From the NCBI GenBank assembly GCA_041687695.1, contig JAWLBL010000030.1, positions 1-64,000 of the forward strand: a stretch of DNA of 64,000 nt. Reading direction: 5' to 3'. Positions within the stretch are counted from its first letter, which is position 1, and the number at the start of each line of letters is the position of its first letter. The translations under genes were made by a program, and so were the position numbers. Positions 1,503-22,482 of the stretch are shown in pieces. This stretch comes from Myxococcota bacterium. Lineage in GTDB: Bacteria; Myxococcota_A; UBA9042; PHBI01; JAWLBL01. Below the pieces are notes generated by a model that was not told where the DNA came from, searched no databases, and was given only the letters and a program-made list of their open reading frames with translations.

Positions 1503-1660
1503 CGGTGCAGACCTTCGGCCCAGCGCTGGCGCTTGTCCAGTGTCGAGGAGGGCGGCTGGTCACGGGGCGCGGCGATCCTGTATGTTGCCGCGACCGAACG
1601 ACCGCTGATGGGAGCCCCGCCGGCGGCGAGCCGCGCCGACAGGGGCGCGAGGAGGACCGA

Positions 1661-4516
1661 ATGCGAGGCATCTCCGGGCTGTGGGCGCGTGCGCTGGTGG
1701 TGACGACGGTGGCGCTGATGGGCGCGGCCGGGTGCGACGGCGAGGGGGGCGGCGAGGCCAAGCGCTGGTCCGTCGTGGCGGAGGGGCTGGACGAGGCGCT
1801 GCTGGCCGTGCACGGGACCTCGTCGACGGACGTGTGGGCGGTGGGCGCGGACCGGGGGCAGGGGCCGCTGGTGCTGCGCTACGACGGGCAGGCCTGGACG
1901 CGGCTCGAGACCGGCACCCAGGGCGACCTGTGGTGGGTGCACGCGGTGCCGGAGGGGCCGGTGTTCCTGGCCGGCGGCAACGGGACGGTGCTGCGCTACG
2001 AGGACGGCGTGTTCACCCGCGAGGCGACGCCGGGGGTCGCGGCGCACACGGTGTACGGGATGTGGGCGCGGGCGGCGGACGACGTCTACGCGGTCGGCAG
2101 CGTGGCGGGGCGCGACGGGTTCATCTGGCGCTACGACGGGCAGGCCTGGCGGAACGTCGATCTGCCGGCGACGACCGAGCTGGGGCCGACCGGCAGCCTG
2201 CCGGGGTTCTTCAAGGTGTGGGGCGACGACGACGAGACGTTCGTGGTCGGCGGCCACGGGCGCATGTTCCGGCTGGGCGACGACGGGTCGCTCGAGCGGG
2301 TGGGCGAAGGCGCGACCAGCAGCACGCTGTTCACGGTGCACTCGGCGGGCGGGCCGTTCGTGGCGGTCGGCGGGGCCAGCGGGGGCGTCATCGTCGAGGG
2401 CGAGCACACGACCGTGGTGGAGGCGACGCCCCAGGGGTGCCCGCTGCTGCAGGGCGTGTGCGTGACCGAGGACGGCCAGGGCTACGCCACCGGGTTCCAG
2501 GGGACCATCTATCGGCGCGACGGGCCGGGGCAGTGGAGCGAGGTGGACCACGGGCTCGAGCTGGCCGTCGAGTCGCTGCACGCGGTGTGGATCGACGACC
2601 GGGGCGGCGTGTGGTCGGTGGGTGGCAACGTCGTGACCTCGCGGCTGAACGAGGGGGCGCTGGTCCATTACCCAGGTGCGTCGGGGGGCGCGAAGGTGCC
2701 GACGTACGTGCCGCCGCCGCCCGAGGACAAGCCGACGCCCAAGGTCGAGTGCCCGGCGGGGCAGATTGACCCGGTGCCGAACGGGTCGATCGCGCGGCGC
2801 TGGAACGAGGCGAACCTGAACGCGATCCGGCGCGCCATCCCGCGGCCGGGCGTGCACGCGCGGAACCTGTTCCACACGTCGGTGGCGATGTACGACGCCT
2901 GGGCGGCCTGGGACGAGGTGGCCGACGGCTATCTGGTGACGGACAAGGCGGCGCCGGCGGCGGATCTGGACGCGGCGCGGCGCGAGGCCATCAGCTACGC
3001 GGCCTATCGGGTGCTGACCCACCGCTACACCATCGAGAACGGCGGGGCGGTGTCGCTGGCGTGCTTCGACGCGCTGATGGACGAGCTGGGGTACGACCCG
3101 GCGGACACGGCGGCGACCGGCGACTCGCCGCGCGCGGTGGGCAACCGCATCGGGGCGGCGGTCGTGGCGGCCTTCGCGGAAGACGGCGCCAACGAGGCCG
3201 CGAACTACGCCGACACGACCGGCTACGTGTTCGTGAACCCGCCGCTGGTGGTGGACCAGCCGGGGACGAAGCTGAACGACCCCTCGCTGTGGCAGCCGCT
3301 GAACCTGGCGGTCGCGGTGACGCAGAACGGCATCATCACCGACGCGGGCGTGCAGGGGTACATCGGCGCGAACTGGGGGCACGTGGCGCCCTTCGCGATG
3401 GAGAGGCCGGCCGAGGGCGCGCCGTACTTCGATCTGGGCGAGGGGCCGGTGTTCGACGAGGCGATGGTCCCGCACGTCGTCGAGCTGATCGAGAAGTCGG
3501 CGCTGCTGGACCCGCGCGACTCCGAGCTCGTCGACCTGTCGCCGGGCGTGTACGGCAACAACCCGCTGGGGACCAACGACGGGCAGGGGCACGGGCTGAA
3601 CCCGGTGACGGGGCAGGCCTACGCGCCGAACCCGATGCCGCTGAACGACTTCGCGCGCGTCATCGCCGAGGTCTGGGCGGACGGGCCGCAGAGCGAGACG
3701 CCGCCCGGGCACTGGGTGAAGATCGGCAACGAGGTGAGCGACACGCCCGGCTTCGAGCGGCGCCTGTGGGGCGAGGGCCCCGAGCTGCCGCGGCTCGAGT
3801 GGGACGTGAAGCTGTACCTGGCGGTCGCGGGGGCGGTGCACGACGCGGCCATCGCGGCCTGGGAGGCCAAGCGGAACTACAACTCGGCGCGCCCCATCTC
3901 GCTGGTGCGCTACATGGGCGGCCTGGGCCAGCGCACGACGCCGGCGCTGCCCGGCTACGACCCGGACGGGCTGCCGCTGGTCGACGGGCTCATCGAGCTG
4001 GTCACCGAGGAGACGGCCGCGCCAGGCGGGCGGCACGCGCACCTGGCGCCGTACCTGGGCGAGGTGGTCGTGCGCTCGTGGCGCGGCGAGCCGGGAGACC
4101 GCGACGCCGAGTTCGGCGGGGTCGGCTGGATCCGCGCGGTCGACTGGATCCCCTACCAGCGGCGCACCTTCGTGTCGCCGGCCTTCCCGGGGTTCGTGTC
4201 GGGGCACAGCACCTTCAGCCGGGCCGGGGCCGAGGTGCTGACCGAGATCACCGGGTCGCCCTACTTCCCGGGGGGCCTGGGCGAGTGGGTGGCCAAGGCG
4301 AACCAGTACCTGGTGTTCGAGGCCGGGCCGTCGGTCGACGTGCACCTGCAATGGGCCAGCTACTACGACGCGGCCGACCAGGCCGGCCAGTCGCGCCTGT
4401 GGGGCGGCATCCACATCGCCCCCGACGACTTCGAGGGCCGCAAGATCGGCAGCGTGGTCGGCAAGCAGGCCGCCGCGCTGGCGCGGACCTACTTCGAGGG
4501 CAGCGCGCACCCGTAA
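1661..4516 (+). CDS. lipoprotein: N-terminal beta-propeller-like repeats fused to a vanadium-dependent haloperoxidase (PAP2 superfamily) domain
   Basis: GGAGG RBS before ATG 1661; lipobox AAGC; repeated units such as AVHGTSSTDVWAVG; catalytic motifs KRNYNSARP, PGFVSGHS and SRLWGGIH. Confidence 0.85.
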   Translation: MRGISGLWARALVVTTVALMGAAGCDGEGGGEAKRWSVVAEGLDEALLAVHGTSSTDVWAVGADRGQGPLVLRYDGQAWTRLETGTQGDLWWVHAVPEGPVFLAGGNGTVLRYEDGVFTREATPGVAAHTVYGMWARAADDVYAVGSVAGRDGFIWRYDGQAWRNVDLPATTELGPTGSLPGFFKVWGDDDETFVVGGHGRMFRLGDDGSLERVGEGATSSTLFTVHSAGGPFVAVGGASGGVIVEGEHTTVVEATPQGCPLLQGVCVTEDGQGYATGFQGTIYRRDGPGQWSEVDHGLELAVESLHAVWIDDRGGVWSVGGNVVTSRLNEGALVHYPGASGGAKVPTYVPPPPEDKPTPKVECPAGQIDPVPNGSIARRWNEANLNAIRRAIPRPGVHARNLFHTSVAMYDAWAAWDEVADGYLVTDKAAPAADLDAARREAISYAAYRVLTHRYTIENGGAVSLACFDALMDELGYDPADTAATGDSPRAVGNRIGAAVVAAFAEDGANEAANYADTTGYVFVNPPLVVDQPGTKLNDPSLWQPLNLAVAVTQNGIITDAGVQGYIGANWGHVAPFAMERPAEGAPYFDLGEGPVFDEAMVPHVVELIEKSALLDPRDSELVDLSPGVYGNNPLGTNDGQGHGLNPVTGQAYAPNPMPLNDFARVIAEVWADGPQSETPPGHWVKIGNEVSDTPGFERRLWGEGPELPRLEWDVKLYLAVAGAVHDAAIAAWEAKRNYNSARPISLVRYMGGLGQRTTPALPGYDPDGLPLVDGLIELVTEETAAPGGRHAHLAPYLGEVVVRSWRGEPGDRDAEFGGVGWIRAVDWIPYQRRTFVSPAFPGFVSGHSTFSRAGAEVLTEITGSPYFPGGLGEWVAKANQYLVFEAGPSVDVHLQWASYYDAADQAGQSRLWGGIHIAPDDFEGRKIGSVVGKQAAALARTYFEGSAHP

Positions 4517-4767: not shown

Positions 4768-6039
4768 TCAGTGACCGCCGCCGCTGGGCTGGGCGCTGCC
4801 CATGAACCAGTCCATGTCGTAGTCGTGCAGGATGACCAGGTAGTCGCGGTCGAGCTCGGCCTCCTCGTCGGCCGACTTGACGACCAGCGCGCCGAACAGG
4901 CCGCGGCCGACGTTCTCGATGGTGCGGGCGTGGTCGTGCAGCGGCCAGGTGCCCGGCGTGTCGGCCGTCCAGGTGTAGGTGACGGGCTCGCCGCCGGGCC
5001 AGGCGACGCTGCCGGGCATGGTGCCGTCGTCGGCGGGGCTCGTGATCACCGCGTGCGGGTGCAGCGACGCCGGGTGCTCGGGCATCAGGTTCTTCAGGTG
5101 CACCCGGACGGTGGTGCCCTCGCGCAGCGACAGGATCCAGGGCTGCCAGGTGGCCTTGTGCGGGCGCACCGTCGCCTGCACGGACGACGCGGTGGCCGCT
5201 TCGAAGGCCTCGGCGTCGGGCATGGGGACATAGGCGCGCACCATCCGGTCCACCTCGACCAGCTGGGTGAGCGCCGGGAAGTACTCGCGCGTGACGGTCA
5301 CCGGGACCTCGGCGGCGACCACCCAGATGTCGACCGTCTCGCCCGGGCCGCCCCGCGGGGGCGGGACCTCGTTCGGGAACCGTCCGTCGTCGCCCAGCGC
5401 CTGGTCGTCGTCGCCCGGCTCGAGCACGCGGAACACCCCCCACATGCCCGAGGCGGCGTGGGTCTCGACGTGGCAGTGGTACATCCAGTCGCCCGCGCCC
5501 ACCCGCTCGTCGGGCGTCGCGTGGCCGGCCCCGGCGAAGAAGTCGGCCTGGTGGACCTCGGCGGGGCCCAGGGTGCGGTTGTCGATGAGGGTGTCGCCGT
5601 CCAGCCACAGGTGCCCGTGGATGTGGAAGGTGTGGAACTCGGGGCCGTAGGACATCACGCGCACGCGCGTGCGCTCGCCGACGTGGGCGCGCAGGGTGGG
5701 CGTGAGCGGCGGCGGGAGGGTGGCGCCGGTCTCGTGCGCGTCGGCGGGCCCCATCATGAGGTCGGCGTCCGAGGGGGCGTCGTAGCCCAGGTCGCGCAGG
5801 TACAGCCAGCGGGCGTAGAGGTTGTCCGACCGATAGTTGAAGCTGTGGCCGTGGTTGCACATGACGTGGGCGGCGTCGCCTTCGCCCATGACGGTGCAGC
5901 CGAGGGCGACCTGGTCCCAGTCGAGCTGGAGGGCGCCGTGCTCGCCGCCGTGGTCGTCCCGAGTGTCGTGGGGGTGGGTGTCGCCGCAGGCGGGCGCGGC
6001 CAGGGCCAGCGCGAGCGCCGAACATCGGAGCAGCTTCAC
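4768..6039 (-). CDS. two-domain multicopper oxidase (small-laccase-like) lipoprotein with reversed domain order
   Basis: HTFHIHGH and WMYHCHVETHAASGM come before SLHPH and WPLHDH; lipobox APAC; GTG start overlaps the upstream TGA (GTGA). Confidence 0.85.
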   Translation of the reverse strand: MKLLRCSALALALAAPACGDTHPHDTRDDHGGEHGALQLDWDQVALGCTVMGEGDAAHVMCNHGHSFNYRSDNLYARWLYLRDLGYDAPSDADLMMGPADAHETGATLPPPLTPTLRAHVGERTRVRVMSYGPEFHTFHIHGHLWLDGDTLIDNRTLGPAEVHQADFFAGAGHATPDERVGAGDWMYHCHVETHAASGMWGVFRVLEPGDDDQALGDDGRFPNEVPPPRGGPGETVDIWVVAAEVPVTVTREYFPALTQLVEVDRMVRAYVPMPDAEAFEAATASSVQATVRPHKATWQPWILSLREGTTVRVHLKNLMPEHPASLHPHAVITSPADDGTMPGSVAWPGGEPVTYTWTADTPGTWPLHDHARTIENVGRGLFGALVVKSADEEAELDRDYLVILHDYDMDWFMGSAQPSGGGH

Positions 6040-6563
6040 TGGACCGCGACCTCGTAGGTGACCGAGTCGCCCGGGGCGAAGGTCAGGGTGAGCGCCCAGG
6101 TGCCGGCCATCGAGGCCTGGACGTCGTGGACGAGGTACTCGCCGCCGCCGACCTCGGTGACGTAGGGGGCCTTGGCCCCGCCGTGGCCCATCCCCTTGTG
6201 AATGAAGGCGACCTGCGGGGTGAGCCCCGAGGCGGGCCCGCCCGACACGGTGTGGATGGTCACCGGGAGCTCGAGGGTGGCGCCGACGCCGACCGGGCCG
6301 TCGAAGTCGCGGATCCAGACCTGATGGGTGCCGGCGGTCGAGGTCTGCTCCTGGCCGGTCGGCGGCGCGATCGCCGTGTCTTCCGCGGCGTCGGGGCCGG
6401 CGGCGTCGGGGGCGCTCGCGTCGGGCTCGGCCGCGTCCTCGTCGGCGCTCGTCTCCTGCAGGACGTCCTGCTGGGCGGCCGTGTCGGCCTGGGGGACCTC
6501 GCCGTCGTTCGAGTCGCAGCCGGCCAGGGCCACCAAGGCGATGCAGATCGTTCTCTTCAGCAT
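6036..6563 (-). CDS. YtkA/FixH-like lipoprotein
   Basis: Lipobox LAGC, acidic linker, then HKGMGHG...GEY...SMAGTWALTL, typical of YtkA-like Ig folds. Confidence 0.7.
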   Translation of the reverse strand: MLKRTICIALVALAGCDSNDGEVPQADTAAQQDVLQETSADEDAAEPDASAPDAAGPDAAEDTAIAPPTGQEQTSTAGTHQVWIRDFDGPVGVGATLELPVTIHTVSGGPASGLTPQVAFIHKGMGHGGAKAPYVTEVGGGEYLVHDVQASMAGTWALTLTFAPGDSVTYEVAVQ

Positions 6564-6761: not shown

Positions 6762-7400
6762 TTGGACGCGTTGCGCAGGTCGCTGGCAGCGAGCGCATCG
6801 TGGATGCTGGCCCTGACGGGGTGCGCCCCGCCGGGCGTGGTGCCGGCTGGCAGCGATCACCCGGCCGTGGTCGGCACCGAAGCGCCGCGCCCGGCCGCGC
6901 CGGCGGCGCGGGACGAGGCGCTGGCGCGGTGGCCGGCCGAGGTGACGCCGCGACATCTGCCCGGCCGGGATCACGACCGGACTCGCGGGGCTCGTGACGA
7001 GCGCGCGGCCATCGCGGCGGCCGAGCAGGCGACGCTGGCGCAGGCGCGGCCGGTCTTCGAGCGCCACTGCGCGCGGTGTCACACGGCGGGCGGGGCCAAG
7101 GCGCGCCAGGGCATCCTGGAGCACTTCGACATGACCGGGTACCCGTTCGGCGGCCACCACGCCGACGAGGTCGGCGAGCGGGTGAGGCGCGTCCTGGGCG
7201 TCACGGGAGAGCCGCCGACCATGCCGCGGGACGAGCCGGGCGCCGTGCAGGGGGCGGAGCTCGAGGCTGTGATCGCCTGGACGGTGGCCTTCGATCGGGC
7301 GCAGGCCGCGGGCCTGCACGGGCCGGCCGGCGGCGAGGGCCACGACCACGAGGCGCCGGCGCCCGCCGACGGCGGCCACGGCGAACACGGGGGGCACTGA
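6762..7400 (+). CDS. monoheme c-type cytochrome lipoprotein with His-rich tail
   Basis: Lipobox LTGC, CARCH heme motif, PPTMP candidate axial Met, C-terminal HDH/HGEHGGH. TTG start follows GGAGG but is uncertain. Confidence 0.7.
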   Translation: MDALRRSLAASASWMLALTGCAPPGVVPAGSDHPAVVGTEAPRPAAPAARDEALARWPAEVTPRHLPGRDHDRTRGARDERAAIAAAEQATLAQARPVFERHCARCHTAGGAKARQGILEHFDMTGYPFGGHHADEVGERVRRVLGVTGEPPTMPRDEPGAVQGAELEAVIAWTVAFDRAQAAGLHGPAGGEGHDHEAPAPADGGHGEHGGH

Positions 7401-8806
7401 TGCGGACGACGGTCGCGCTGATGGTGACGGCGGGCCTGCTGGGCGCCACGGGGTGCGCGCCGAGCCGTGACGAGCTGTTCGCGCCGGTCCGCGAGGACGC
7501 GCGGGCCCGGCTCGGGGTGGCTCCCGAGTGGCGGTCGGAGGGGCGGGCCAGTGCCCAGGTGAGCGAGCAGGTGGACGCGCTGCTCGCCGAGCCTCTGGAC
7601 GCGGACGCCGCGGCCCGCATCGCGGTCCTGAACAGCCCGCGGCTGCAGGCCGAGTACGCGCGGCTCGAGGCGGCGCGGGCGCGGCTGCTGGGCGCACGCA
7701 CGCCGCCGAACCCCGAGGTCGAGGCCGAGCTGCGCTTCCCGGTGGACGGCGGGGGCGGCGCCGAGGTCGAGCTGGGGGCCATGATCCCCTTGACGGACCT
7801 GCTGACGCTCGGGACGGCGTCGAGCGCGGCCGGCGCCGAGCTGCGGGCGCGGCAGCGGCGCGCGGTGGCGGCGACCCTGCGCGTCGCGGCCCAGGGGCGC
7901 ATGGCCTACCTGCGGGCGGCCGCCGCAGAGGCCCGACTGGCGGTGCGGCGCGGGGTGGCGGAGGCGGCGGCCGCGAGCGCGCAGCTGGCCGAGGAGCTGC
8001 GGCGGGCGGGGAACGTCACCGAATTCGACCGGCTGCTGGAGGCGGCGCTGGCCGAGGACACGGCGGTCGCCGTGCGCGCCGCCGAGGCCGAGGCGGCGGC
8101 CGCGCGGGCGGACCTGGCGGCGACGCTGGGGCTCCACGGGCGGCGGGCCGAGCTGAGGCTGGCGGCCGAGCTGCCGGCCGTCCCGCCCGACCTGGACCCC
8201 CGGCCCCTCGAGGAGGCGAGCGTAGCGGCGAGCGAGGCGCTGGCCGCGGCGCGGCTGGAGCTGGAGGCGGCGGGCGCGCGGGTCGGCCTGGCGCGCTTCA
8301 GGTCGGTGCTTCCGGGGCTGGCGGTGGGCGTGTCCGCCGAGCGCGACGAGGGCTGGGGCGTGGGGCCGGCGGTCGCGCTGGAGGTGCCGCTGTTCGACTG
8401 GGGGCAGGGCGAGCGGGCCGAGGCCTGGGCCGAGGTGCGTCGCCTTCAGCAGGCGTACGCGGCCCAGGCGCTGGACGTGCGGGCGGCGGCGCGGCGGACC
8501 GAGGCGCGGCTGGTGGCGGCGCACGCGCGGGCGAGACGGCTGCGGGAGGTCGTGGTGCCCTTGCGGCGGCGGCTGCTCGCGCGCGGCGTGCTGCAGTACA
8601 ACGCCATGAACCTGAGCCCGTTCGAGCTGCTGATCCTGCGGCGCGATCTCTTCGAGGCCGAGCTGAGGCTGGTCGAGGCGACGGCCGACTTCTGGATGGC
8701 GCAGGCCGGGGCCGAGGCGCTGCGGGGCGGCGCGCTGCTGGACGACGACGGGCGCGGGGCCGAGGCCGGCCTCGAGCGCTCGCTGGACCGGGGGGACCAC
8801 CGATGA
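7400..8806 (+). CDS. TolC-family outer membrane protein of the copper-oxidase operon type
   Basis: Lipobox ATGC; AARIAVLNSPRLQA, EVPLFDWGQ and QYNAMNLSPFELL; TGATG coupling to the upstream gene. Confidence 0.85.
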   Translation: MRTTVALMVTAGLLGATGCAPSRDELFAPVREDARARLGVAPEWRSEGRASAQVSEQVDALLAEPLDADAAARIAVLNSPRLQAEYARLEAARARLLGARTPPNPEVEAELRFPVDGGGGAEVELGAMIPLTDLLTLGTASSAAGAELRARQRRAVAATLRVAAQGRMAYLRAAAAEARLAVRRGVAEAAAASAQLAEELRRAGNVTEFDRLLEAALAEDTAVAVRAAEAEAAAARADLAATLGLHGRRAELRLAAELPAVPPDLDPRPLEEASVAASEALAAARLELEAAGARVGLARFRSVLPGLAVGVSAERDEGWGVGPAVALEVPLFDWGQGERAEAWAEVRRLQQAYAAQALDVRAAARRTEARLVAAHARARRLREVVVPLRRRLLARGVLQYNAMNLSPFELLILRRDLFEAELRLVEATADFWMAQAGAEALRGGALLDDDGRGAEAGLERSLDRGDHR

Positions 8807-10248
8807 GCGGGGTGTCGCGTCGAGACGTCCTGGTGGCCGGGGCGGCGCTGGGCAGCGCGCTGCTGAGCGGGCGGGCCAGGGCCCAGCACGACCACGACCA
8901 CGATCACGGGCCCGAGCCCGAGGCGCCGGCCCCAGCCGTGCCTACCACGCCAGCGCCGTCGTCCGCGCCGGCGCCTCCCACGCCCGCGTCGGACCAGGGG
9001 GGACACGGCGGCCATGGGGCCTCGGGCCCGCACCCGCCGCCCCGGCGCACGCCTCGGCCCACCCCGCCCGGCTGGCGCGACGACGGGACGGTCGTCACGC
9101 CCAACGGCGCCCGCATGCCGTGGCGCGAGGTCGACGGGGTCAAGGTCTTCCACATCGTCGCCGAGCCCATCGTCCACACCTTCGTCGAGGGCCTGACCGT
9201 CGAGTGCGTCGGCTACAACGGGCGCACGCCGGGGCCGACCATCGAGGTCACTCAAGGCGACCGCTGCCGCTTCTACGTGACCAACCGGCTGTTCGCCGAG
9301 ACGACCGTCCACTGGCACGGTCTGCTGGTGCCCAACGGCATGGACGGCGTCGGGGGGCTGACCCAGCCTTCGATCCCGCCCGGCGAGACCTTCGTCTACG
9401 AGTTCACCTTCGACAACGCCGGCACCTTCATGTACCACGCGCACTTCGATGAGATGACCCAGATCGCCCTGGGGCTGATGGGCATGATCGTCGTCCACCC
9501 TCGGCGGCGGCCGCCGCGGCGCGTACGCGACTACGCGCTGATGCTGCACGAGTGGCGCGTCGAGCCGGGGGCGGCGCGGCCCAACCCGCTGGAGATGCTG
9601 GAGTTCAACGTCCTGACGATGAACAGCCGCGTCTTCCCGGGCACCGAGCCGCTGGTGGCCGAGCGCGGCGACCTGGTCCGCGTCCGGCTGGGCAACCTGA
9701 GCGTGCAGAACCACCACCCCATCCACCTGCACGGCTTCCACTTCCAGCTGGTCGAGACCGACGGCGGGCCCGTCCCGCCGAGCGCGCGCTGGCCGCTGGC
9801 GACCATCCTGGTGCCGGTCGGGACCGTGCGCGTCTTCGAGTTCGTGGCCGACGCGCCGGGCGACTGGGCCATGCACTGCCACATGCTGCACCACGTCATG
9901 AACCAGATGGGGCACGACCTCCCGAACATGGTCGGGGCCCAGGCGGCCGCGGCCCACCGGCGCATCTCGGCGCTGGTCCCCGGCTACATGGGCATGGGGC
10001 AGGACGGGATGAGCGGCATGGGCGAGGCGCACATGCCGGTGCCCGAAAACAGCATCCCCATGAAGGGCGGCGCGGGGCCGTTCGGCTTCATCGACATGGG
10101 CGGCATGATGACCATCGTCAAGGTGCGCGACCGGCTGCCCGCCTCGGGCGACCCCGGGTGGTACCAGCACCCGCCCGGGGCGGTGGCCTGGGCGGCGAGC
10201 CCGGCCGAGCTGCGCCGCGACGGCATCGATCCCGACGTGCAGCCGTGA
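8803..10248 (+). CDS. Tat-exported two-domain multicopper oxidase with Met-rich C-terminus
   Basis: SRRDVL Tat motif; VHWHG, MYHAH, HPIHLHG and HCHMLHHVMNQM in canonical order. Confidence 0.9.
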   Translation: MSGVSRRDVLVAGAALGSALLSGRARAQHDHDHDHGPEPEAPAPAVPTTPAPSSAPAPPTPASDQGGHGGHGASGPHPPPRRTPRPTPPGWRDDGTVVTPNGARMPWREVDGVKVFHIVAEPIVHTFVEGLTVECVGYNGRTPGPTIEVTQGDRCRFYVTNRLFAETTVHWHGLLVPNGMDGVGGLTQPSIPPGETFVYEFTFDNAGTFMYHAHFDEMTQIALGLMGMIVVHPRRRPPRRVRDYALMLHEWRVEPGAARPNPLEMLEFNVLTMNSRVFPGTEPLVAERGDLVRVRLGNLSVQNHHPIHLHGFHFQLVETDGGPVPPSARWPLATILVPVGTVRVFEFVADAPGDWAMHCHMLHHVMNQMGHDLPNMVGAQAAAAHRRISALVPGYMGMGQDGMSGMGEAHMPVPENSIPMKGGAGPFGFIDMGGMMTIVKVRDRLPASGDPGWYQHPPGAVAWAASPAELRRDGIDPDVQP

Positions 10249-10552: not shown

Positions 10553-10861
10553 TCAGCGCCGCTCGCGGCGCTCGGAAAGCATCTTGATTCTGAGGCCTTG
10601 TCCTCGGATCGACCGCTGAGGGGAACGGCTGACGTCCAAGCGCCTGACCGTCACGCGGCGGACCGCTTCGAGCGTAATCGGGCGCGCATCCGGGCCGACC
10701 TCGAAGACGGGGAACCCACCGTGGGCGTGGACGCCGGGAGCGCTGGAGAGCGCCTTGGGCATCAGCTCGGAGGCGACCCGACCCATGGGGACGCGGCGTG
10801 CTTCGGCGAGGCGCTTCACGGCGCGAAGCGCATCGTCGTCGATTCGGAGCGTGGTGCGCAT
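10553..10861 (-). pseudogene. VapB/CopG-like ribbon-helix-helix antitoxin, orphan, probably a decayed toxin-antitoxin pair
   Basis: MRTTLRIDDDAL...GFPVFEVGPDARPITLEAVRR; no intact toxin gene follows. Confidence 0.6.
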
Positions 10862-10922
10862 GCTGAGAGGTCGGTGCACCGATGTCCTGACGTCCAGGTG
10901 CGGCGCCTTCGACCGGGCTCCG

Positions 10923-13280
10923 CTATCGGAGGGGGGCCCGGCGCAGGCGTAGGGCGTTGGCGACGACCGAGACCGAGCTGAAGCTCATCGCGGCGGCGGC
11001 GAACATCGGGCTCAGCAGCAGGCCGAAGAACGGGTAGAGCAGGCCGGCCGCGATGGGGACGCCCAGGGCGTTGTAGCCGAAGGCGAACCACAGGTTCTGC
11101 TTGATGTTGCGCAGGGTGGCGCGGCTCAGGGCGCGGGCGTCGGCGATGGCGCCCAGATCGCCGCGGACCAGGGTGACCCCGGCGCTCTCCATGGCGACGT
11201 CGGTGCCCGTGCCCATCGCCAGGCCGACGTCGGCGCGGGCCAGGGCCGGCGCGTCGTTGATGCCGTCGCCGGCCATGGCCACCACGCGGCCCTCGCGCTG
11301 CAGACGCTCGACCACGGCGGCCTTGTCGTCGGGGCGGACCTCGGCGATGACCTCGTCGAGATCCAGCCGCCGCGCGACCGCCTCGGCCGTGGTGCGGCTG
11401 TCGCCGGTCAACATCACCAGCCGCAGGCCGTCGGCGTGCAGGCGGGCGATGGCCTCGGGCGTGGTCTCCTTGACCGGGTCGGCCACCGCGACCAGGCCCG
11501 CCGGCGCGTCGTCCACCGCCACGAACATCACCGTCTGGCCGTCGCGCCGGCCCGCCTCGGCGGCCTCGACCAGCGGGCCGAAGGCGACGCCGCGCTGGGC
11601 CATCAGGGCCGCGTTGCCCAGCGCGACCTGGCGGCCCTCGACCTGTCCCATGACCCCAAGCCCGGTCAGCGATTCGAAGCCGGCGGTTTGTCCCAGGGTC
11701 ACCCCGCGCGCCTCGGCGCCTTCGACGATGGCCGCGGCCAGCGGGTGCTCGCTCGCCCGCTCGAGGGTCGCCGCCAGGCGCAGTAGATCGGCCTCGTCCC
11801 AGCCGGGCGCCGCCGTCACCCTGGCCAGGCGCGGGCGGCCCTCGGTCAGGGTGCCGGTCTTGTCGACCACCAGCGTGTCCACCGCGCGCAGGCGCTCGAT
11901 GGCCTCGGCGTTCTTGAACAGCACGCCCATCGTGGCCCCGCGCCCGGCGGCGACCATGATCGACATCGGGGTCGCCAGGCCCAGGGCGCAGGGGCAGGCG
12001 ATGATCAGGACCGCCACCGCGTTGACCAGCGCGAAGGTCAGCGCCGGGTCGGGCCCGAAGAGGGCCCAGACGATGAAGGTCGCCACCGCTATGAGGACCA
12101 CCGCCGGGACGAACCAGGCGGCGACCAGATCGGCCAGGCGCTGGATGGGCGCCCGGCTGCGCTGCGCGTCGGCCACCATCTGCACGATGCGCGACAGCAG
12201 CGTGTCGGCGCCGACCTTGTCGGCCCGCATCACTAGGGCGCCGGTGCCATTGATGGTGGCGCCGATCAGCCCGTCGCCGGCGCGCTTTTCGACCGGCATG
12301 GGCTCGCCGGTGACCATCGCCTCGTCGACGCTGCTCGCGCCCTCCAGGACCACGCCGTCGACCGGGACCTTCTCGCCCGGCCGCACGCGCAGGCGGTCGC
12401 CCGGGTGGACGCGCTCGAGCGGGACGTCCTCCTCGCGCCCGTCGTCGGTCAGCCGGCGCGCCGCCTTGGGCGCGAGGCCCAGCAGGGCCTTGATGGCGGC
12501 GCCGGTGCGGCTGCGGGCGCGAAGCTCGAGCACCTGCCCCAGCAGCACCAGCGTGACGATGACCGCCGCCGCCTCGAAGTAGACGCCGACCGCGCCGCCG
12601 TGGCTGCGGAAGGCCGCCGGGAACAGCCCGGGGGCGACCGTCGCGACCACGCTGTAGACCCAGGCCACCGACACGCCCAGCGCGATGAGCGTGAACATGT
12701 TGAGGTTCCAGGTCACGACCGAGCGCCAGCCGCGCACGAAGAACGGCCAGCCGCCGTACAGGACCACCGGGGTCGCCAGGACCAGCTGGACCCAGGTCAG
12801 GTCCTGCGGCGCCAGCAGGCCGTCCAGCGGCCGGCCGGGCAGCATCTCGCCCATCGACAGCAGCAGCACCGGCAGGGTCAGCGCGGCCGAGACCCAGAAG
12901 CGGCGCGTCATGTCGACCAGCTCCGGGCTGGTCTCCTCCTCGGCGCTGGGCGTCATCGGCTCGAGCGCCATGCCGCAGATGGGGCAAGCGCCGGGCCCGT
13001 CGCGCACGATCTCGGGGTGCATCGGGCAGGTCCACTTGGCCCCGGCGGGGGCCTCGGGCTGGCGCGCAGCCGCCGCCCGCGTGTCCAGGTAGGCCGCCGG
13101 GTCGGCCGCGAAGCGATCGCGGCACTTCGCGCTGCAGAACAGGACCTCGCGGCCCTCGTGCGCCAGCCGGTAGGGCGTCTCGGGGCCGATCTGCATGCCG
13201 CACACCGGGTCGACGCCGGTGACCTGGTCCGTCGGTCCGTGGGGCTGGGCCGAGCCGTGTCCGTGGTGCTGGTGGGTCAT
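10923..13280 (-). CDS. copA: Cu(I)-translocating P1B-type ATPase with His-rich, YHS and CPMHP metal-binding N-terminus
   Basis: DPVCGM...[14 protein letters not shown]...[38 protein letters not shown] and MSFSS. Confidence 0.92.
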
Positions 13281-13282
13281 GG

Positions 13283-15607
<2,325 letters not shown>

Positions 15608-15665
15608 CGTCCGTCTCCGTCTCGGGTCTCGCCCCGCCACGCCACGCGGGGGGCTCACCAGGACG

Positions 15666-15691
15666 GACGCGGCCGGACCGATGCGATGACA
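15666..15691 (-). promoter_or_regulatory. candidate ECF sigma promoter TGTCATCGC-N13-CGTC upstream of the ATPase pair
   Basis: The same motif with the same spacing occurs at 27139-27164 upstream of the HMA gene. It lies directly after the ECF sigma stop codon. Confidence 0.65.
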
Positions 15692-15692
15692 G

Positions 15693-16250
15693 TCAGTGCC
15701 CGCAGGTGCAGTCGACGCAGCCCAGCTCGGCGCAGCGCCCGCAGGTCGCCGCCACCCGCTGCTTGAGCGCCTGCCGCGCCCGGAAGACGCGCTGCGCCGC
15801 GTTGGCCCGCGTGACCCCCGCCTCGTCGGCGAAGTCCTTGACCGCCACCCCGTCCACCTCGATGCGCTGCAGCGCCTCGGCGTACTCGGGCTTCAGCTCG
15901 CCCGCGAGGCGGCTCACGCAGCGGCACACCGATTCGGCCAGCGCCTCGGGCGGGTCGTCGACCGCGGCGATGCCCTCGAGCTCGCGGCTCAGCGCCTCGC
16001 TGGCCCGCTGGGCGCTGGCCTTGCGCCGCCGCCAGTCGATGGCCGCGTTGCGCAGGGTCGCATGGAACCAGCCCATGACGGCCTCGCCCTCTCGCAGCGT
16101 CGCCGCCCGCGTGATGGCCCGCGCGAAGGCCTCCTGCAGCAGATCCTCGGCTACGGCCCGGTCTCCGACCCGCCGCTCGAGGAAGCCCAGGAAGGCGTCC
16201 CGCTCGGCCATCAGCCGCGCCATGACCTCGTTCGTCCGTGCGTCGCTCAT
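15693..16250 (-). CDS. corE: ECF sigma factor with C-terminal Cys-rich domain (CorE-like, metal-activated)
   Basis: Sigma2 region [17 protein letters not shown], a CRC motif before sigma4, and C-terminal [14 protein letters not shown]. Confidence 0.8.
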
Positions 16251-16260
16251 CGCTCCCTCC

Positions 16261-19410
<3,150 letters not shown>

Positions 19411-19414
19411 GGCG

Positions 19415-21190
19415 CTACCTCCCCGCCCGCGGCGCGTGCCGCACGGCGCCCAGGCCGCGCACGGTGACCCGCTCGCCCGGGGCGAGGCCGCCGGTCACCT
19501 CGACCCGCCCTCCGTCGCGCCGGCCCAGCGCCACCTCGCGCGCCTCGAACCGCTCGGGCGCGGTGTGCACGAAGACCAGCCGCCGGCCCTCGACCTCGAG
19601 CACGGCCGCCTCGGGGACGGCCAGCGTCTCGCGGGGCGCCCCCGCCGTCAGCGCCACCCCGGCGAACATCCCGGCCTTGAGCCGCTCGGCCCCCTCGCGG
19701 ACCTCGAAGAGCACCTCGAGCGTCCGCGTCGCCGGGTCGACCGCCTCCCCGACCGCCACCCGCCGCCCGGCGAAGCGCTCGCCAGGCCACGCCTGCACCG
19801 TCACCTGGGCGGCCTCGCTGGCCAGGGCCCGCCCCACGTCGGCCTCGAAGACCCGCGCGCGGGCCCACACCACCGACGGGTCGACCACCGTCCACAGGGC
19901 CTGCCCGGGCTCGACCACCTCGCCGGCGCTGGCCCCGACGGCGGTCACGACGCCCGCGATGGGCGCCCGCACCTCGAGCCGCGCCGTCGCGCCCGCCTCG
20001 CTGAAGGCCGCCCCGGCCGCCCGCGCCGCCTTGACCTCGGCCTGCGCCCCCGCCAGCTCGGCCTCCGCCGCCTCGACATCGCGCCGCGCCACGATGCCCT
20101 CGAGCCCGCGCAGCCGCTCGAGCTGCTTCTTCGCCGCCGCGGCCCGCGCCGATGCAGCCTGCGCCTCGGCCGCGGCCCGTCCGCGTTCGCTCGCGAAGCT
20201 GGCCCGCTCGGTCGCCCCGAGCACCGCCTCGACCACCCCCAGCACCTGCCCGCGCTCGACCCGCTCGCCCACCGTCGGCAGCCGCCCGCCCTCGCCCGCC
20301 GTTCGCAGCTGGCCACCCTGCGGGGCCAGCACGCCGGCCTTGCGATCGGGCGGGGTCACCACCTCGCCCGTGACCTCCAGCCGCTCCACCAGCGCCGCCG
20401 GCGCCGCCAGCGCGGTCTCGACCTCGAGCAGGAACTGCGTCTCCTTGCGGACGACCTGACCCGACCCGCCGCCTGAGCGCGCGAGCGGCGCGGAGACCAC
20501 CGGAGCCTCGTGCGCGTGGTCGTCGCCGCCGTGGGCCATGGCCCGCCAGCCGCCCATCGCCAGCACCGGCGCGACCACCGCGCCGGCCAACGCTGCGATC
20601 TTCACCGCCCGCCGCCCCGCGACGTAGGCCACCCACAACAACAGCAGCAGGGCCAGCGCCCCGCTGGCCGTCCAGACGTTCAACCACCCGTGCGCGTGGT
20701 CGCCGTGGTCGTGGTCCTGGTCGTGGTCGTCGTGTCCGGTCGCCACGGCGGCGGACGGCCCCACCTCGACGCCCGGCACGGCCAACACCTCGGCCTGGCC
20801 CCCGCCGACCGCCGTGACCGTCAGAGCGTACCGGCCCGGCGTCGGGAAGGCGACGCTGGCCTCGTAGATCCCGGCGGCCCCGGTCGCCTCCGCGTGCGCC
20901 TCGACCGAGCCCGGCCCCGCGAAGCTCAGGTCCAGGTCCAGCCCGGCGATCGGCCGGTTGGTGGCCCAGTCCGCGACGAACAGGCGCATCGGCACGGCCT
21001 GGCCCGCCTCGGTGGCCGGCCATCGCACCAGCAGCTCGAGATCGCGGCTCGCCGCCTCGGCCGTCCGCTCCTCGGTCGTCGCGCTCGGCGGCGGAATCGG
21101 CGCCCCGTGGTCGTGGCCTTCGTGGGCCCCGGCCGAGCCGGCCAGGCCGAGCACCAGCGCGGCCACCATCGTCGTCAACGTCCGCTTCAT
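19415..21190 (-). CDS. RND periplasmic adaptor (CusB/CzcB-like) with extra N-terminal Ig-like, His-rich and TM region
   Basis: Signal peptide then AHEGHDHG; C-terminal MFP motifs VRAPIAGVV, VDPATRTLEV and LKAGMF. Confidence 0.85.
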   Translation of the reverse strand: MKRTLTTMVAALVLGLAGSAGAHEGHDHGAPIPPPSATTEERTAEAASRDLELLVRWPATEAGQAVPMRLFVADWATNRPIAGLDLDLSFAGPGSVEAHAEATGAAGIYEASVAFPTPGRYALTVTAVGGGQAEVLAVPGVEVGPSAAVATGHDDHDQDHDHGDHAHGWLNVWTASGALALLLLLWVAYVAGRRAVKIAALAGAVVAPVLAMGGWRAMAHGGDDHAHEAPVVSAPLARSGGGSGQVVRKETQFLLEVETALAAPAALVERLEVTGEVVTPPDRKAGVLAPQGGQLRTAGEGGRLPTVGERVERGQVLGVVEAVLGATERASFASERGRAAAEAQAASARAAAAKKQLERLRGLEGIVARRDVEAAEAELAGAQAEVKAARAAGAAFSEAGATARLEVRAPIAGVVTAVGASAGEVVEPGQALWTVVDPSVVWARARVFEADVGRALASEAAQVTVQAWPGERFAGRRVAVGEAVDPATRTLEVLFEVREGAERLKAGMFAGVALTAGAPRETLAVPEAAVLEVEGRRLVFVHTAPERFEAREVALGRRDGGRVEVTGGLAPGERVTVRGLGAVRHAPRAGR

Positions 21191-22482
21191 CGCGTCCCTC
21201 CTTCGTCCTCGGCGGCCGTCCCGACCGCCCGGGCCAGCGCCAGCCGCGCCGCGGCCAGCTCGATGCGGGCCTCGGCGCGCGCCAGCTCGGCCCGCACCAG
21301 CCGGTCCCGTTGGTTCAGGTAGCTCTCCAGCGACAGCGCGCCCGCCTCGTAGCCGCGGGCCAACCACGCCAGCGTCTCGGCCACCGCCGGCTCCGTCTCG
21401 GCCCAGGCCGCGGCCCGCGCGCGGGCGGCCTCGAGCCGCGTCCACGCCTGCCGCACCTGCTGCGCCACGGCCACCCGCAGCGCCTCGACGTCGGCCTGGG
21501 CCGCCCGTCGCTCCGCCCGCGCCGCCGTCACCTCGGCCGCCCCCGAGCCCCACAGGGGCAGCGGCACCGACACCGACAGCTCGATCCGCTGCTCGGCCTC
21601 GCGGGTGAACGGTCCGTCGACCTCCTCGCCCTCACGCGCCCAGCCCAGCCCGACCGTCGGGACGGGGATGCGGTCGCGCTCGGCGCCGCGCACCGCGTGC
21701 CCGGCGGCCTCGACCTCGCGCTCGGCCGCGGCCAGCTCGGCCCGGCGGGCCACCGCCGTCGCCACCAGAGCCGCCTCGTCGTCCGCCATCGGGCCGCCGA
21801 TCTCGGGATCCACCTCGCCTACGGCGCACGGCTCCAGCGCCAGCCGGCCACACAGCGCCAGCTCGGCCAGGCGGGCCTCGCGCTCGGCCTCCAGCGCCTC
21901 GGCCCGGGCCGCCGCCGCCTCGACCTTCGCCAGGTTCAGCGCCGACGGCGGCAGCTGCCCGGCCTCGACCTGCGCGCCGGTCGCGCGGACCACCTCGTCC
22001 GCGAGCGCGGTCAGGTCCTGGCGCATCGCCGCCACCGCCCGCGCCCCTTGCAGGCGGGCCGCGCGCTCGCCGGCGTCCAGCCGCAGGGCCTGCCGGGCCG
22101 CATCCAGCCGCGCCTCGGCGGCGCGCACCCGAGCGCGCTGCTCGGCCACCCGCGCCTGGCGGGTCCCGAAGACGGGCAGCGCCTGCCGCACCCCGACGGC
22201 CACCTCCGAGCGCCCCTCGGCCCACGGCGCGCCCACGCCGATCTCGGCCTCCAGCTCGGGGTTGGGCAGCGCGCGCTCGGCGGCGGACAGCTCGGCCTCG
22301 GCGCGAGCCAGCTCGGCCCGGGCGCGGGCGACGGCCGGCGAGCGGGCCTCGGCTTCGCCGACGAGGCGCGCCCAGGGTGTGACCGAATCGGTCTCGCCCC
22401 CCGGCGGCAGGGCCCGCGCCGGCAGCGCGGCGGCCAGCAAAGCCAGGGTCAACAGGGCGGTGAGCGGGGTAGGGACGTTCAT
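21187..22482 (-). CDS. TolC/CzcC-family outer membrane factor
   Basis: LPNPELE, SVSVPLPLW and GYEAGALSL; first gene of the CBA operon. ATG 22482 chosen because it lies downstream of the sigma54 motif. Confidence 0.85.
   Translation of the reverse strand: MNVPTPLTALLTLALLAAALPARALPPGGETDSVTPWARLVGEAEARSPAVARARAELARAEAELSAAERALPNPELEAEIGVGAPWAEGRSEVAVGVRQALPVFGTRQARVAEQRARVRAAEARLDAARQALRLDAGERAARLQGARAVAAMRQDLTALADEVVRATGAQVEAGQLPPSALNLAKVEAAAARAEALEAEREARLAELALCGRLALEPCAVGEVDPEIGGPMADDEAALVATAVARRAELAAAEREVEAAGHAVRGAERDRIPVPTVGLGWAREGEEVDGPFTREAEQRIELSVSVPLPLWGSGAAEVTAARAERRAAQADVEALRVAVAQQVRQAWTRLEAARARAAAWAETEPAVAETLAWLARGYEAGALSLESYLNQRDRLVRAELARAEARIELAAARLALARAVGTAAEDEGGTR

Follow-up and report, generated by a model that had tools for sequence, protein, structure and literature searches.

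Two-domain multicopper oxidases have been divided into types A, B and C, where type B carries its type 1 (T1) copper in the C-terminal domain and type C is defined by a T1 copper in the N-terminal domain, and they are described as trimers with a trinuclear site between protomers (main text of PMC13151041). Type B and C models are used in a genome survey of bacterial laccases (as set out in PMC3192119). For six-domain bacterial oxidases, the trinuclear site is placed between domains 2 and 3 (according to PMC3600357). In Bacillus subtilis, the lipoprotein YtkA, or CtaK, is described as supporting the assembly of the CuA centre (PMC13344008).

In the 64-kb window considered here (the whole stretch of DNA that was analysed), a gene at positions 4768..6039 on the minus strand encodes a two-domain multicopper oxidase of 423 aa, recognised by homology, Pfam and motifs, which has a permuted domain order. 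Its start codon, GTG, overlaps the TGA stop of the gene upstream. A longer open frame of 645 aa reaching 6705 was rejected as the oxidase gene, in that the homologues start with their signal peptides and the added stretch overlies the upstream YtkA-like gene in another frame. The original prediction had placed four copper-ligand motifs in an inverted order, and all of them lie in the 423-aa ORF where it put them: HTFHIHGH at residues 136-143 (5634-5611), WMYHCH at 185-190 (5487-5470), SLHPH at 325-329 (5067-5053) and WPLHDH at 365-370 (4947-4930). It had also put the T1 domain, which is of the domain-2 type, first in the chain, and this agrees with a Pfam scan, in which Cu-oxidase_2 (residues 182-206) is N-terminal to Cu-oxidase_3 (303-390), and with a PDB sequence search, in which residues 110-208 match domain 2 of the Streptomyces two-domain small laccases, while the match of residues 291-407 covers domain 1 and continues into the first domain-2 strand. 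The neighbouring oxidase at 8803 has the canonical order, as had been stated, according to its Pfam domains.

The order in the permuted oxidase is thus domain 2 without its first strand, a 27-aa linker, domain 1, and the first strand of domain 2. The type-1 copper domain (residues 38-206; 5422..5928, minus strand), delimited by Pfam and PDB matches, includes a helical, MnxG-type insert at about residues 66-110. The new inter-domain linker (residues 207-234; 5338..5421, minus strand) is 27 aa long in 31 of the 44 rows of the family alignment described below, with G219, E224, P226, G230 and G233 near-invariant. It is followed by canonical domain 1 (residues 235-388; 4876..5337, minus strand) and by the displaced strand, DRDYLVILHD, with a tail (4771..4851, minus strand), identified by superposition on SLAC and by conservation. 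The tail has conserved D408, M409, W411 and M413 and a terminal His423. The chain had been predicted to end with DRDYLVILHDYD, a strand resembling the one that opens domain 2; the resemblance holds, but the chain continues for 15 more residues, and the last residue past the DRDYLVILHDYD tail is His in 43 of 44 rows. An AlphaFold model (44-row alignment, P0003 first) reached pLDDT 88.7 and pTM 0.86, with residues 391-410 at 92-97 and the linker blocks at 80-97. Because residues 231-406/407 of this model, tail strand included, superpose on SLAC 44-197/203 (rmsd 1.8 A, 128-131 residues), the tail strand occupies the usual start of domain 2, as expected from a true circular permutation rather than a simple swap of domains. 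We have great confidence that the circular permutation is real.

How widespread is this arrangement? A homology search yielded 85 proteins. One of them, P0003, is a near-copy of the window protein, from which it differs at the start residue and two other positions, and 43 others are full-length (91-100% coverage, 47-63% identity) with the same domain order. The resulting family alignment has 44 rows. Of 107 genomes from the window's class, 13 contain the permuted gene (the window's own genome is one of them), with no internal stop in any match; it is also present in 8 of 401 genomes sampled from the phylum, all eight belonging to that class; the source names of three homologues are Myxococcota or Myxococcales. 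At locus L127, the GC content is 42-46%, as against 73% in the window's genome, so at least one unrelated host also has a member of the family. The ESM Atlas clusters nearest the permuted oxidase are generic multicopper oxidases (0.91). A search for duplicated, fused or otherwise longer forms gave 18 matches among 8000 scored candidates of 742-2115 aa, and none of these was above E 5e-35. No close four-domain intermediate was found in these 8000 candidates or in a search of 1.84 billion representatives, which is weak evidence of absence.

Ligand roles were assigned by alignment to SLAC, for which we take the commonly given assignments to be correct. The T1 ligands H136, C189, H194 and M199 all fall in the first domain, and the trinuclear ligands H139, H141, H188, H190, H327, H329, H368 and H370 are divided four per domain. 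All 12 canonical ligands are invariant (44/44 rows), in agreement with the view that the ligand motifs are intact. Beyond these, the ends of the permuted chain have extra conserved His, Met and Cys residues, a new feature that was absent from the original prediction. A new N-terminal element (residues 48-65; 5845..5898, minus strand) contains the pair Cys48/Cys61, which probably forms a disulfide, and His58, Met60, His63 and His65, which on the basis of their conservation are a candidate extra metal site; His65 may correspond to a labile metal-site His of ceruloplasmin. C48, C61, H63, H65, H405 and D406 are invariant (44/44), H58, M60 and D408 are conserved in 43 and M409 in 42 of the 44 rows. 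H405 is not a new feature, because normal-order relatives have it too. These extra His, Met and Asp residues lie on either side of the cut and would be expected to come close together in the folded protein.

SLAC is exported with a twin-arginine (Tat) signal. The permuted oxidase instead begins with a Sec/lipoprotein signal peptide (residues 1-18, ending at Cys18; 5986..6039, minus strand), recognised from alignment and pattern. The lipobox Cys column is invariant (44/44) and the lipobox pattern is matched in 42 of 44 rows, whereas a strict Tat motif occurs in none of the 44 and a loose one in a single row. The proposal that a lipobox replaces the Tat signal thus holds for the type of signal, but the window's own lipobox, APAC, is atypical and is one of the two rows that fail the pattern. 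For the two-domain oxidase CjMCO, a Tat signal is stated (PMC13151041).

A second new feature, which the original prediction missed, is the pairing with the gene immediately upstream. This gene (6036..6563, minus strand; 175 aa), whose stop overlaps the oxidase start, encodes a YtkA/FixH-like lipoprotein assigned by a weak Pfam match and by synteny, with conserved motifs F-[IL]-H-x-x-M-[GN]-H and S-M-x-G-x-W. The window protein scores 20.4-22 bits against Pfam YtkA (PF13115), under the cut-off of 25.9, which 4 of 8 scanned orthologues exceed. A YtkA-like gene lies directly upstream of the permuted oxidase in 14 of 16 other testable loci. An orthologue is directly upstream in 10 of 12 other genomes, with G149 having its matches on other contigs and G314 left out of the count because its oxidase runs to the contig end; in further metagenome loci, after five duplicates were set aside, it is upstream in 4 of 5 (L125-L128, not L115). 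Three of the counted proteins were used to build the search profile and so match it necessarily. Within the class, 29 of 107 genomes have YtkA-like matches, which are therefore not confined to the permuted-oxidase operon. We regard the YtkA-like protein as a candidate copper chaperone; its tight pairing with the oxidase suggests that members of this chaperone family supply copper not only to CuA but also to multicopper oxidases, and the pairing offers a way into how a Sec-exported oxidase obtains its copper.

Several loci add detail to this association. At L094:13362-15201 (minus strand), at a distance of about 5 kb from the permuted gene, a three-domain oxidase lipoprotein is encoded with a second YtkA-like gene upstream of it, and YtkA-oxidase pairing may be general in this group. 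At L127:841-1638 (plus strand), the locus of 42-46% GC, the upstream partner has two tandem YtkA-like repeats. At L115:694-3660 (minus strand), the early-branching member P0088 has no YtkA-like gene and is flanked divergently by two proteins with a common His-rich motif, HGGIVLMQG, and by a possible outer-membrane protein; the one HGGIVLMQG protein that was scanned has no Pfam match.

In the window, the permuted oxidase lies among copper-export genes. A divergent operon at 6840-10248 (plus strand) encodes a cytochrome c-like protein (weak PF13442, CARCH motif), a TolC-type efflux protein and the normal-order two-domain oxidase, which has a His/Pro-rich N-terminus and a Met-rich tail. The region 10923-21553 (minus strand) encodes two tandem heavy-metal P-type ATPases (YHS/HMBD and HMA types), an ECF sigma factor, an RND pump, and a membrane-fusion protein containing a weak YtkA domain (19.1 bits). 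A small ORF at 10553-10879 (minus strand) has weak RHH/VapB antitoxin matches under the cut-off. On the other side, convergent with the permuted oxidase, the gene at 1625-4513 (plus strand) encodes a large secreted, vanadium haloperoxidase-like protein in which DUF6851 scores 66.8 bits and a VCPO second helical bundle 35.9 bits, and a SAM methyltransferase and a cation-efflux (CDF) gene at 51-1502 stand on the margin of the metal island. In a comparison with 12 other loci, only two had a CusA-like gene or a second oxidase nearby, with an RND pump near L101 and the second YtkA-like gene and three-domain oxidase near L094; the remaining loci have only the YtkA-like gene in common. A copper-handling role is therefore plausible, though not strongly supported, and the plausible role in copper detoxification draws largely on the neighbourhood of the 64-kb window itself.

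How might such an enzyme have arisen, and how might it work? With moderate confidence, we favour the view that a type B two-domain multicopper oxidase underwent circular permutation in nature and that the product is chaperone-loaded and trimeric. A normal-order gene resembling that of P0090, a protein discussed below, would have been duplicated in tandem and then have lost both outer ends, with the cut falling directly behind the opening strand of domain 2; it would also have gained a new signal peptide. The best reading of the sequence is a Sec-exported, lipid-anchored, oligomeric and probably trimeric oxidase that is loaded with copper in the periplasm. The oxidase is presumably active, as was originally predicted. 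The apo-protein would be exported unfolded by Sec and then be lipid-anchored, the Cys48-Cys61 disulfide would form, and the YtkA-like partner would assist copper insertion once the chain has left the cytoplasm. Passage of the unfolded apo-protein through Sec would account for a need for an external copper chaperone. The C-terminal strand would complete the type-1 domain of its own chain, and three chains would assemble into the six-cupredoxin-domain ring typical of these enzymes. Each interface between chains would hold a trinuclear centre, giving three T1 and three trinuclear sites in all. Electrons would pass from the substrate to the Met-ligated T1 copper and on, by way of the His-Cys-His bridge, to the trinuclear centre, where O2 would be reduced to water. 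The chemistry is probably ordinary oxidase chemistry. The substrate is probably a metal ion; Cu(I), in a role in periplasmic copper handling, which could bind at the His/Met/Asp cluster of the two new chain ends, would be about an even bet, Mn(II)/Fe(II) and phenolics would each be considerably less probable, and any other substrate would be the least probable.

The strongest competing explanation concerns the topology of the chain. The same permuted gene might encode a protein whose linker runs across the trinuclear interface, like the link from domain 2 to domain 3 of six-domain oxidases, giving each chain a complete trinuclear site, with the ring shut by donor-strand completion, in which the C-terminal strand of one chain inserts into the type-1 domain of the next. 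We consider this a possibility worth keeping in view, though a clearly less probable one. It would be the geometry required of a tandem-duplicated ancestor; the ligand order equals that of MnxG domains 2-3 (PMC3600357); the linker is conserved in length and sequence; and strand exchange is invisible to a one-chain prediction, which is biased to completing the fold within one chain and cannot show such an exchange. Against it, the prediction for one chain carries high confidence (pTM 0.86, linker blocks 80-97) and appears to pack domain 1 against domain 2 in the ordinary way. Its superposition on MnxG, the top Foldseek hit, gives an rmsd of 19.1 A and a TM of 0.29, so that the monomer model does not have the domain 2-3 packing needed for a one-chain trinuclear site; no solved chain among 48,161 representatives aligned to the model over both domains (the longest listed alignment covered 175 residues); and the linker is no more like six-domain linkers than shuffled sequences are, in that 1 of 97 real tails and 16 of 1940 shuffles reached at least 5 bits. 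A two-copy complex prediction (residues 36-418, four Zn) scored 0.05 against a mark of 0.42 and weighs neither way, and a single-sequence fold of P0090 reached a pLDDT of 29.5, too low for use. An oligomer seems to be required in either topology. With the strand kept at home, a second chain has to complete the trinuclear site; with the trinuclear site inside one chain, it is the strand that depends on a neighbour.

The tandem duplication that we favour as the origin of the permuted gene draws on its relation to P0090, a protein of 340 aa with the normal order. The kind of REARRANGEMENT was judged from an unfiltered search of 1.84 billion representatives, in which P0090 is the best match outside the family (E 4e-52). 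The top non-self matches of P0090 are in turn permuted-family members (E ~1e-52), with normal-order proteins at 1.6e-38 or weaker, so that the two are reciprocal best matches. The local alignment score of the permuted oxidase is 288 against P0090 and 534 against P0090 written twice, collinear over residues 92-407; in the same tandem-doubling test, the already-repeated six-domain proteins that were tested gave no rise in score. The cut site in the permuted family lies directly after the first strand of domain 2. P0090 represents one cluster of five members on short contigs, and a metagenome scan with it (63 loci) found, apart from permuted members, no normal-order locus above 80 bits on the domain-1 profile. 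Core identity of the permuted family is 49% to P0090, 41% to P0099, 39% to SLAC-like proteins and 28.5% to six-domain proteins.

Trees that took in 12 of 45 permuted-family members are consistent with this relationship. In both single-domain trees, the permuted family pairs with P0090 (SH-aLRT 84), and both these and the concatenated tree place it on a branch apart from SLAC. The concatenated tree, with 22 of 51 eligible six-domain proteins (P0096 being dropped for a missing motif), has the 22 six-domain proteins in a group of their own with support of 100 and the permuted family outside it. AU tests weakly reject a clade of the family and SLAC (p-AU 0.0405, on a quick tree of 185 columns) and reject neither the family with P0090 and P0099 (p 0.678) nor the family with the six-domain proteins (p 0.651; p-AU 0.127 for domain 1 alone), so that these two placements are not told apart. 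Because the constrained tree of family and six-domain proteins outscored the free search, the free quick tree is not optimal. The name 'small laccase', used in the original prediction, is therefore too narrow: the halves match SLAC domains, but the nearest normal-order relative is P0090 rather than SLAC.

Could the gene instead be the catalytic core of an MnxG-type six-domain oxidase or of its tandem ancestor, comprising domains 2-3 and the first strand of domain 4, and possibly be a manganese oxidase? A PDB search with the family profile puts MnxG (9BXA) first (E 1e-35): profile positions 66-211, in which the insert lies, align with MnxG 215-356, and positions 291-388 align weakly with 481-595. 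As in MnxG, the T1 domain precedes a domain of the trinuclear partner type; MnxG also heads the Foldseek hits, several six-domain proteins are collinear across both halves (e.g., P0094, 110-389), and the joint clade is not rejected by the AU tests. Such an excision nevertheless appears unlikely. The core identity to P0090 is far above that to six-domain proteins, 22 of which group alone; from these two observations, we consider excision from a modern MnxG in particular to be unlikely. Furthermore, the insert is also found in the normal-order two-domain proteins P0090, P0096 and P0099, and the permuted protein, with its two domains and 423 aa, scores 44.5 bits against NCBIfam MnxG (NF041487), for which the cut-off is 3100. 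The family may instead descend from a tandem ancestor shared with the six-domain proteins. P0096, P0099 and P0090 combine the normal two-domain order with MnxG-type inserts. Both single-domain trees place P0096 among six-domain proteins; it scores 89.6 with the MnxG model and is a candidate two-domain 'proto-MnxG'. P0092 (722 aa) has two tandem two-domain units with His motifs kept in the first and fourth domains only, and by sequence would be a four-domain analogue of the ceruloplasmin 1-6 arrangement.

It is very improbable that an ordinary type C oxidase has been misread as permuted. A T1 copper in the N-terminal domain does define type C (PMC13151041), and the order of HCH before HDH agrees with fragments of 3G5W; the likeness is, however, one of position only. 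The N-terminal half of the permuted protein matches 3G5W 175-261 and the C-terminal half matches 35-151, a crossed rather than collinear arrangement; Foldseek against 3G5W gives a TM of 0.17 and an rmsd of 20 A; and the first half belongs to Pfam Cu-oxidase_2 and the second to Cu-oxidase_3. Type B, in turn, does not fit by position, with all T1 ligands in the first domain, but does by the homology of the T1 domain to domain 2 (Cu-oxidase_2 class) and by the ligand set of eight trinuclear His, 4+4 per domain, plus four T1 ligands. An assembly or gene-calling artefact can for practical purposes be dismissed: no read set spans the whole gene (a sequencing-run search gave two DNA runs with a share of 0.07 in scattered short contigs and no RNA run among those listed), but one error-free 151-nt contig crosses 5360-5510 (end of the first domain and start of the linker), the same order in 43 independent full-length homologues excludes misassembly, and 13 of 107 class genomes carry the gene with no stop inside any match.

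The permuted family is consequently type C by position and type B by descent; it would work like a type B two-domain oxidase but fails the positional definition of that type. Two-domain multicopper oxidases are classed as A, B or C by the chain end that holds the blue copper, a scheme that the permuted family breaks, and classifiers based on motif order would misfile it. Motif order had been offered as a sign of permutation; the permutation stands, but the order is not unique to it, being found also in type C and in domains 2-3 of six-domain enzymes. No description of a natural permuted two-domain oxidase was found in open-access full texts, which agrees with the original prediction, in which no such family was known to have been described; a 2026 paper devoted to type B enzymes names types A, B and C, and the string 'permut' does not occur in its main text (PMC13151041).

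This family also lends itself to testing the standard view that six-domain enzymes arose from trimeric two-domain ones by tandem duplication, because its junction from domain 2 to domain 1 could come only from a duplicated gene. We speculate, as a doubtful extension, that it is a surviving intermediate of that duplication between two-domain and six-domain enzymes, with a full T1-plus-trinuclear unit per chain spanning the covalent link from domain 2 to domain 1, a strand-exchanged trimer, a new His/Met metal site made of the two cut ends and a dedicated YtkA chaperone that loads the copper. If so, it would be the smallest self-contained catalytic unit of a multicopper oxidase and a fourth structural class of two-domain enzymes. 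Whether the trinuclear site lies within a two-domain chain bears on the making of single-chain small laccases.

Compared with the type B small laccases SLAC and Ssl1 (3CG8, 3T9W, 8AIP) and CjMCO, the permuted oxidase likewise has two cupredoxin domains, a T1 site (His, Cys, His, axial Met) in the domain of the domain-2 type, and trinuclear His divided 4+4. It differs from these enzymes in its opposite domain order, in the cut after the first domain-2 strand and the new 27-aa linker, and in having a lipoprotein signal in place of Tat, MnxG-type inserts, the extra Cys pair, the His/Met cluster and the YtkA-like partner. With the uncharacterised P0090 (also P0099 and P0096) it shares the long domain-1 hairpin and helix and the domain-2 insert, whereas P0090 has the normal order, no lipobox that could be seen, and neither the Cys pair nor the terminal His. 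The MnxG-type six-domain oxidases (9BXA; NF041487) and algal Fox1 similarly have a T1 domain before its trinuclear partner (as described in PMC3600357), and MnxG also has the helical insert in the type-1 domain; these enzymes, in contrast, have six domains and at least 1200 aa as against two and 423 aa, share about 28% core identity, and pack differently from the monomer model. The type C Nitrosomonas BCO (3G5W) also has T1 in the first domain and HCH before HDH, but its second domain is homologous to the first domain here, and vice versa. Finally, YtkA (CtaK) of B. subtilis resembles the partner protein as a membrane-anchored PF13115 lipoprotein implicated in copper-centre assembly; it serves the CuA of cytochrome caa3, whereas the partner here is coupled to a multicopper oxidase (for the B. 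subtilis protein, PMC13344008).
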